Assembly (NCBI RefSeq): GCF_000026545.1
Contig: NC_011601.1
Direction: 5' to 3' (one strand)
DNA: 64,000 nucleotides
Source of the DNA: Escherichia coli O127:H6 str. E2348/69
GTDB taxonomy: Bacteria; Pseudomonadota; Gammaproteobacteria; Enterobacterales; Enterobacteriaceae
Part shown: one piece after another, positions 2,179 through 2,658 of the stretch
Numbering within the stretch: position 1 is the stretch's first letter
Layout of the letters: each line of letters starts with the position of its first letter
Program-made: the position numbers and the translations under genes
Notes under the pieces: model-generated
What the model saw: the letters and a program-made list of their open reading frames with translations, nothing else
Told to the model about the DNA's origin: nothing
Database searches by the model: none

Positions 2179-2358
2179 GTCTGGCCTCGATAAAATAATG
2201 ATGATGATGTTATCAATACTATCGAAAACAGCCCGAAGCAACGGATTCCTCTATGAAATTATTGCGTGTTGCAGAGGGGATGTGACGGCTGCAAACAAAA
2301 CCAATCCTGTGAGCCTGCTACTATTGATGGATTCATGCCAAAAGCACAGGAGAGCATT

Positions 2359-2621
2359 ATGGGGCAACAAACGCAGCGTAACCGATGTTGGGTTCTGTCC
2401 TCGCGTCCGCATGGCGCGCCGGTTCCTTACGTCTGGTTTCGGTAAATGTGCTCTTTGTCGCACCAGCGCAAGCATTTACAGTTCCGGAAGTGGGAAAACG
2501 TCAATTAAATGAAATCAATCGGATCCGCTACGAACTGGAATTAATGGCAGTTGCTCTGGCTGTCGAAAACCTCACTATGCAAAAAAACGTTGCTATGTTG
2601 TGCCAGCAATACAGCCGATAA
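2359..2621 (+). pseudogene. remnant: first ~23 codons of a CurA/YncB-like NADPH reductase joined out of frame to fragments of a GntR/FadR-family regulator (McbR-like)
   Basis: ATG at 2359 gives MGQQTQRNRCWVLSSRPHGAPVP then stop; overlapping ORF 2385..2621 carries ...LRLVSVNVLFVAPAQAFTVPEVGKRQLNEINRIRYELELMAVALAVENLT followed by only 14 more residues. Far too short for either a ~345 aa reductase or a ~220 aa regulator. Confidence 0.55.
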
Positions 2622-2625
2622 ATAA

Positions 2626-2650
2626 AATACGCCCGGCAAATACCGGGCTT
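2626..2650. terminator. hairpin GCCCGG-CAAATA-CCGGGC between convergent genes (bidirectional terminator candidate)
   Basis: Perfect 6-bp stem between the regulator-remnant stop and the yncD stop. Confidence 0.45.
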
Positions 2651-2658
2651 AAAGATAA

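Follow-up and report, generated by a model that had tools for sequence, protein, structure and literature searches.

Remnants of curA and mcbR between mnaT and pqqU in Escherichia coli E2348/69: a probable two-deletion scar shared by a large B2-consistent clade

The stretch of Escherichia coli O127:H6 E2348/69 DNA analysed here, referred to as the window, is 64,000 nucleotides long, and its gene calls were taken from the PGAP annotation of NZ_CP059840.2 (E2348/69), positions 2466717-2530716 on the reverse complement, which equals the window at 64000 of 64000 bases. The interval between mnaT and pqqU (yncD) covers window positions 2179-2658 and is 480 bp long; its K-12 equivalent is 2,116 bp long and contains two genes, curA (1038 bp, 345 aa) and mcbR (666 bp, 221 aa). 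The product of curA is an NADPH-dependent curcumin/dihydrocurcumin reductase, and mcbR is also named yncC. An original prediction, made from the letters of the window, gave the interval as 417 bp beginning at 2242, a start that stems from a TTG-extended open reading frame; its statement that K-12 has two complete genes of about the above protein sizes was right.

Comparison by blastn of window 1660-3200 with the K-12-type locus L002 (mnaT, curA, mcbR and pqqU; BW25113/MG1655 type) returned three blocks that are collinear with K-12, with match strengths far above chance. The first (window 1660-2426) corresponds to mnaT and nt 1-68 of curA, with 96.9% identity over 767 bp, the second (2427-2575) to nt 166-314 of mcbR, with 93.3% identity over 149 bp (E=4e-60), and the third (2576-3200) to nt 621-666 of mcbR followed by pqqU, with 95.2% identity. 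Both genes are reduced to fragments, as had been predicted, and pairwise alignment with the K-12 interval, which had been proposed as the way to define the breakpoints, sets them between 2426 and 2427 and between 2575 and 2576. The features of the locus are as follows.

1660-2178, minus strand: mnaT (yncA) coding sequence, the intact left flank, with its annotated ATG at 2178 (PGAP)
2179-2358, no strand: mnaT-curA divergent intergenic region, kept whole, collinear with K-12 and inside the 767-bp block of 96.9% identity
2359-2426, plus strand: curA remnant, nt 1-68 (22 codons and 2 nt), with its own Shine-Dalgarno sequence (blastn, PGAP)
2359-2445, plus strand: 28-codon by-product open reading frame running from the curA start across J1 into the wrong mcbR frame, MGQQTQRNRCWVLSSRPHGAPVPYVWFR and a stop codon
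2385-2621, plus strand: mechanical 78-codon open reading frame in the mcbR frame, spanning both fragments and ending at the native stop
2426-2427, no strand: junction J1, a 1332-bp deletion (alignment, junction 50-mer)
2427-2575, plus strand: mcbR fragment 1, nt 166-314 (codons 56-104 and 2 nt) (blastn, Pfam coordinates, PGAP)
2575-2576, no strand: junction J2, a 306-bp deletion within mcbR (alignment, junction 50-mer)
2576-2621, plus strand: mcbR fragment 2, nt 621-666 (the final 14 codons and the native stop) (alignment)
2622-2658, minus strand: mcbR-pqqU intergenic sequence, 37 bp, with a hairpin at 2631-2648 (terminator scan)
2659-4761, minus strand: pqqU (yncD) TonB-dependent receptor coding sequence, the intact right flank (PGAP)

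PGAP describes the curA piece as a 'hypothetical protein, missing C-terminus' and the mcbR piece as a 'GntR family transcriptional regulator, missing N- and C-terminus', flagging both as incomplete/pseudogene and giving neither the name curA nor the name mcbR. The ATG at 2359, preceded by an AGGAG Shine-Dalgarno sequence, opens MGQQTQRNRCWVLSSRPHGAPVP, the start of K-12 CurA being MGQQKQRNRRWVLASRPHGAPVP, which bears out the curA-like start of the original prediction; the piece had been put at about 23 codons, and while its identity stands, its exact extent is 22 codons and 2 nt.

Relative to K-12, deletion 1 begins at curA nt 69, ends at mcbR nt 165 and comprises 1332 bp, and J1 joins position 2 of curA codon 23 to position 1 of mcbR codon 56. 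This junction is out of frame, as had been noticed from the letters; in the curA frame, 28 codons are read before the stop at 2445. It had been taken for the only junction, but a second deletion lies inside mcbR. Deletion 2 removes mcbR nt 315-620 (codons 105-207), and since its length of 306 bp is divisible by three, the mcbR frame runs on to the native stop at 2619-2621. The '14 more residues' with which this frame had been reported to end were correct in number; they are the native McbR C-terminus, unrecognised at the time, behind the in-frame deletion, fragment 2 encoding MQKNVAMLCQQYSR and its K-12 counterpart being MQQNIAILYQQYNR. Residue changes relative to K-12 amount to 3 of 22 in CurA, 3 of 49 in McbR fragment 1 and 5 of 14 in the last residues of McbR. 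A Shine-Dalgarno sequence is absent upstream of the ATG at 2385, which opens the 78-codon frame.

The breakpoints are identical against K-12 and four further intact alleles, and against all of these the microhomology or direct repeat at J1 and J2 amounts to 0 bp in both cases, leaving slipped-strand or short-repeat recombination unsupported. No IS remnant is present at the scar. The two deletions may have arisen in one complex event or in two successive ones.

On intact McbR, Pfam places the GntR winged helix at residues 13-74 and the FCD effector domain at 84-209. By these coordinates residues 56-104, kept in fragment 1, comprise the wing, the linker and the first FCD helix, in agreement with the earlier reading of this piece as wing and first effector-domain helix. 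Residues 1-55 are deleted, the helix-turn-helix residues 13-55 among them, and of the DNA-binding part just residues 56-74 (the wing) are left; the FCD domain has lost residues 105-207. For CurA, residues 1-22 alone are left, the ADH_N_2 domain (Pfam) spanning residues 9-116 in K-12, and the ADH_zinc_N domain (Pfam, residues 161-297) falls wholly within the 1332-bp deletion. The remnant translations of 28, 64 and 78 aa matched no Pfam family at E<=1, and an Rfam search of window 2100-2760 returned nothing better than a chance-level rimP leader (E=0.92). Descent from curA is evident in window 2179-2426, which is collinear with the K-12 mnaT-curA intergenic region and curA nt 1-68, and descent from mcbR in the 149 bp at 93.3% identity together with a 46-bp 3' end contiguous with pqqU. 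These are syntenic pieces of genes that are intact in relatives, and the full products can no longer be encoded, as expected of a pseudogene or scar.

The preserved intergenic region at 2179-2358 presumably holds the promoters of mnaT and curA. A promoter scan returned three matches against 1.1 expected, which are to be read as consensus matches only. At the other end, a hairpin of the form GCCCGG-N6-CCGGGC occupies 2631-2648, just past the pqqU stop, with a T-run after it on the minus strand; this terminator-like structure would fit the role of pqqU terminator. The hairpin is conserved in every allele aligned, with its stem unchanged.

The decay of the remnant was assessed by counting lineage-private sites, defined as window bases that differ from all five intact alleles. 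The flanks contain few of them: 2 of 519 positions in mnaT, 1 of 180 in the mnaT-curA intergenic region and 3 of 542 in the 3' part of pqqU. The corresponding figures are 3 of 68 for the curA stub, 8 of 149 for mcbR fragment 1 and 5 of 46 for mcbR fragment 2, so that the pooled fragments (16/263) differ from the pooled flanks (6/1241) with an odds ratio of 13 (Fisher p=1.4e-8). The highest lineage-private density of the region is found in the 37-bp mcbR-pqqU spacer at 2622-2658 (6 of 37, including a 2-bp insertion on the T-tract side). Seven carriers of different lineages aligned without any indel and with the same junctions; among their 27 variable sites, 10 fall in the 263 bp of the fragments, a frequency of 3.8% against 1.4% in the flanks. 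Constraint is thus relaxed relative to the neighbouring functional sequence, in a comparison that comprises only five intact alleles and seven carriers. Judged from sequence, the decay pattern points to a scar that is old, drifts neutrally and was passed down from a common ancestor, not to a conserved element.

The distribution of the arrangement was determined in a collection of 5426 complete E. coli genomes. At least 80% of window 1660-3200 was found in a single piece in 1044 genomes, 1041 of these at no less than 99% identity. Probes of 50 nt centred on J1 and J2, for which no seeding is possible on intact genomes, occur in 1041 genomes each. The intact K-12-type interval is present in 4357 genomes, while the segment removed by deletion 1 was found in 4371 and that removed by deletion 2 in 4366; taken together, the junction and deleted-segment counts over the 5426 genomes reveal no class with just one of the two deletions. 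From count arithmetic only, E2348/69 would carry no second copy of curA or mcbR. The odd genomes are accounted for by IS insertions or other sporadic lesions. Outside the carrier clade such lesions of curA/mcbR comprise IS1 in strain 162.2 (H41), IS903B in 13C1065T (H141), a truncated mcbR in GON1437 (H84) and a partial deletion in 19SZHZ869Rt (H140); being sporadic and independent, they suggest that mcbR can be dispensed with in other backgrounds as well.

The short form accounts for about 19% of the genomes. Its recognisable carriers are E2348/69 (O127:H6), O25b:H4-ST131, O6:K2:H1, ATCC 25922, Nissle 1917 and its derivative SYNB1934, and PMV-1, all of which we take to belong to phylogroup B2. 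The interval is intact in K-12, B, O157:H7, O111, O103, O121 and others, and also in APEC O2-211, a strain of ST117, the sequence type at the centre of phylogroup G, which is sister to B2. The sequence type of APEC O2-211 is from a published report (PMC6256689). The occurrence of J1 and J2 in 1041 of 5426 complete genomes makes the short interval the normal state of a large B2-consistent clade, and, with the phylogroup taken from the named strains and the counts, the scar is probably both B2-wide and B2-only. The scar is an old deletion in the ancestor of a B2-consistent lineage, neither strain-private nor a product of mis-assembly.

[quoted passage not shown] In EHEC, McbR is reported to bind dihydrofolate as well as the promoter of ler, the LEE master regulator, and to bring about LEE repression upon a block of folate synthesis (PMC13343897, 2026); EPEC is unmentioned in that study. 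The mcbA gene is present in 5417 of the 5426 genomes, carriers of the scar included (for example DETEC-P793, listed as H239 and H296), and since it is kept in carriers that have no mcbR, it persists there without its repressor. The yciE-yciF-yciG block is wholly absent from E2348/69 (NZ_CP059840.2 2679700-2735300, loci L010-L012, outside the window), where the sequence between trpA and ompW contains ISEc13, IS200C, a partial ompW duplicate and a lambdoid prophage with nleA, nleH1-2 and nleF. The block is missing in about 700 of the 5426 genomes; in the ST131-like STIN_95 an IS1 element occupies the yciEFG site.

Two explanations dispute that the interval records an inherited loss. Mis-assembly, or a recent loss confined to the E2348/69 isolate, has practically no probability left: nothing speaks for it beyond the caution expressed with the original prediction, and it is refuted by the same junctions in 1041 complete genomes, assembled independently of one another and covering many lineages and hosts, to which the numerous fixed substitutions in the fragments are added. 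A reversed polarity, with the short form ancestral, curA and mcbR gained by other lineages and the similarities incidental, could appeal to the short form being found in roughly 19% of genomes. However, the remnant consists of internal pieces of both genes in the right order and orientation, the 149-bp piece with E=4e-60, the reading frame is broken at one junction, and one gene retains its start but no body; the presence of internal gene fragments fixes the polarity of the event, and the ordered, partly out-of-frame pieces with their E-values refute an ancestral short form, the chance of which is negligible. The genes are, moreover, intact in 4357 genomes of varied lineages, ST117 included, and McbR has been reported from Salmonella, Shigella and Enterobacter (PMC13343897). 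The original prediction was to fall if the arrangement proved normal in many strains and the similarities spurious; the former is true of a large clade (1041 of 5426 genomes), the latter false (E=4e-60).

Two further explanations accept the loss and concern what remains and why. The remnant might be functional, as a 28-aa peptide, a 78-aa McbR-derived peptide or a regulatory transcript from the curA promoter, and the intact curA Shine-Dalgarno sequence, ATG and upstream region, the absence of additional indels across seven lineages, and the in-frame deletion 2, which leaves an open reading frame to the native mcbR stop, are compatible with this. Translation of a peptide from that frame would accordingly be a formal possibility. 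But evolution is about 13 times faster in the fragments than in the flanks, polymorphism among carriers is higher there, amino-acid changes are dense (5 of the last 14 McbR residues, for example), the 78-codon frame has no Shine-Dalgarno sequence, no Pfam domain was recognised and no Rfam match was better than E=0.9, and the helix-turn-helix part (13-55) and most of the ligand domain are missing, all of which renders a functional remnant very improbable. Selection of the deletions as a pathoadaptive loss of McbR, in place of fixation by drift, is unlikely, though by a good deal the least so of the four. The deletions are fixed in a large and successful clade, and McbR represses the LEE in EHEC (PMC13343897); suggestive only are the similar double-deletion scar of a second biofilm/c-di-GMP regulator, dosC, in a similar number of genomes, and the disappearance of the McbR-activated yciGFE from E2348/69 and some 700 genomes. 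Against selection, drift predicts fixation at the base of a clade equally well, mcbA is kept, and the LEE is missing from many B2 carriers. It is likewise unlikely that the loss of McbR was non-neutral and formed, with the dosC scar and in some lineages the loss of yciGFE, part of a reorganisation of biofilm, c-di-GMP and stress control that defines B2.

The 480-bp interval is therefore very probably a non-functional scar left by the loss of ancestral curA and mcbR. The ancestor of the clade comprising E2348/69, ST131, Nissle 1917 and ATCC 25922 would have lost both genes through two non-homologous deletions, one spanning curA codon 23 to mcbR codon 55 (1332 bp) and the other mcbR codons 105-207 (306 bp). 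The intergenic region on the mnaT side and the pqqU terminator would have been spared, plausibly as the neighbouring genes need them. What is left provides neither an mcbR promoter together with a start, nor a complete domain, nor any catalytic part of CurA, and the three fragments have probably been drifting neutrally ever since. Bacterial genomes have a deletional bias, and lineage-specific gene loss is expected.

We infer that carriers of the scar make neither CurA nor McbR, and that McbR-dependent control of mcbA and folate/dihydrofolate-responsive repression of ler would be absent from them; an effect of the loss on the regulation of biofilm and colanic acid is plausible. As E2348/69 has no mcbR, the dihydrofolate-McbR-ler circuit would be unable to operate in this prototype EPEC strain, and if this is true, EHEC and EPEC, the two model attaching-effacing pathogens, would differ in the input of folate starvation or sulfa drugs to LEE expression. 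The lack of mcbR in the scar genomes (E2348/69, ST131, ST73/Nissle, ATCC 25922) likewise means that McbR results from K-12, EHEC and APEC are not transferable to them. CurA-dependent reduction of curcumin would be expected to be absent from carriers, the probiotic Nissle included. The value of the observation lies in this caution and in a small testable lead; otherwise it is a routine lineage-specific loss.

The scar is a well-known kind of feature and in this sense already known, both pieces being marked as pseudogenes in the annotated reference genome. No explicit report that B2 or this clade is without mcbR or curA was found in the searchable literature, which did not extend to the E2348/69 genome and McbR structure papers. 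Small additions are the two-deletion anatomy, the finding that the junctions are strictly coupled, the spread across the clade and the link to McbR-ler in EHEC.

Other losses were observed in the window. At about 35105, the ddpXABCDF operon (a D-Ala-D-Ala dipeptidase and transporter, located between dosP and osmC in K-12) is missing and dosP is directly followed by osmC. Between ansP and pptA (about 8460-12630) lies a degraded Rhs/VgrG region with a frameshifted RHS core fragment and a truncated, VgrG-like 'phage late control D' gene, and this region also contains a SymE-family toxin gene, small hypothetical open reading frames and several PGAP pseudogenes. In dosC (yddV, encoding a diguanylate cyclase and located upstream of dosP; window 37608-37818), the 3' 165 bp are kept, 530 are lost, a 44-bp island is kept and 689 are lost; a 93-nt query across both of its junctions matched at 80% coverage or more in 1047 of 5426 genomes.

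Compared with the K-12 mnaT-curA-mcbR-pqqU locus, the E2348/69 interval has the same flanks, intergenic regions, and order and orientation of fragments, with 93-97% identity in the kept blocks. It differs in that curA and mcbR are complete in K-12, whereas E2348/69 is short of 1332 and 306 bp and neither of its genes is productive. McbR/YncC, a GntR-family protein with a solved structure (PDB 4P9F), has been placed in the VanR subfamily (PMC13343897); fragments 1 and 2 are homologous to its codons 56-104 and 208-221, but the remnant has no start codon, no residues 13-55, no residues 105-207 and no Pfam match. The dosC scar resembles that of curA-mcbR in its two deletions around a small kept island and in the nearly equal number of genomes, which suggests another clade-wide loss of a biofilm/c-di-GMP gene; unlike the curA-mcbR scar, it affects one gene, a diguanylate cyclase, and the operon partner dosP is intact. 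The clyA locus, reported as non-functional in all 15 ECOR B2 strains (PMC4164713), would likewise represent the phylogroup-wide loss of a chromosomal core-type gene, at a different locus.
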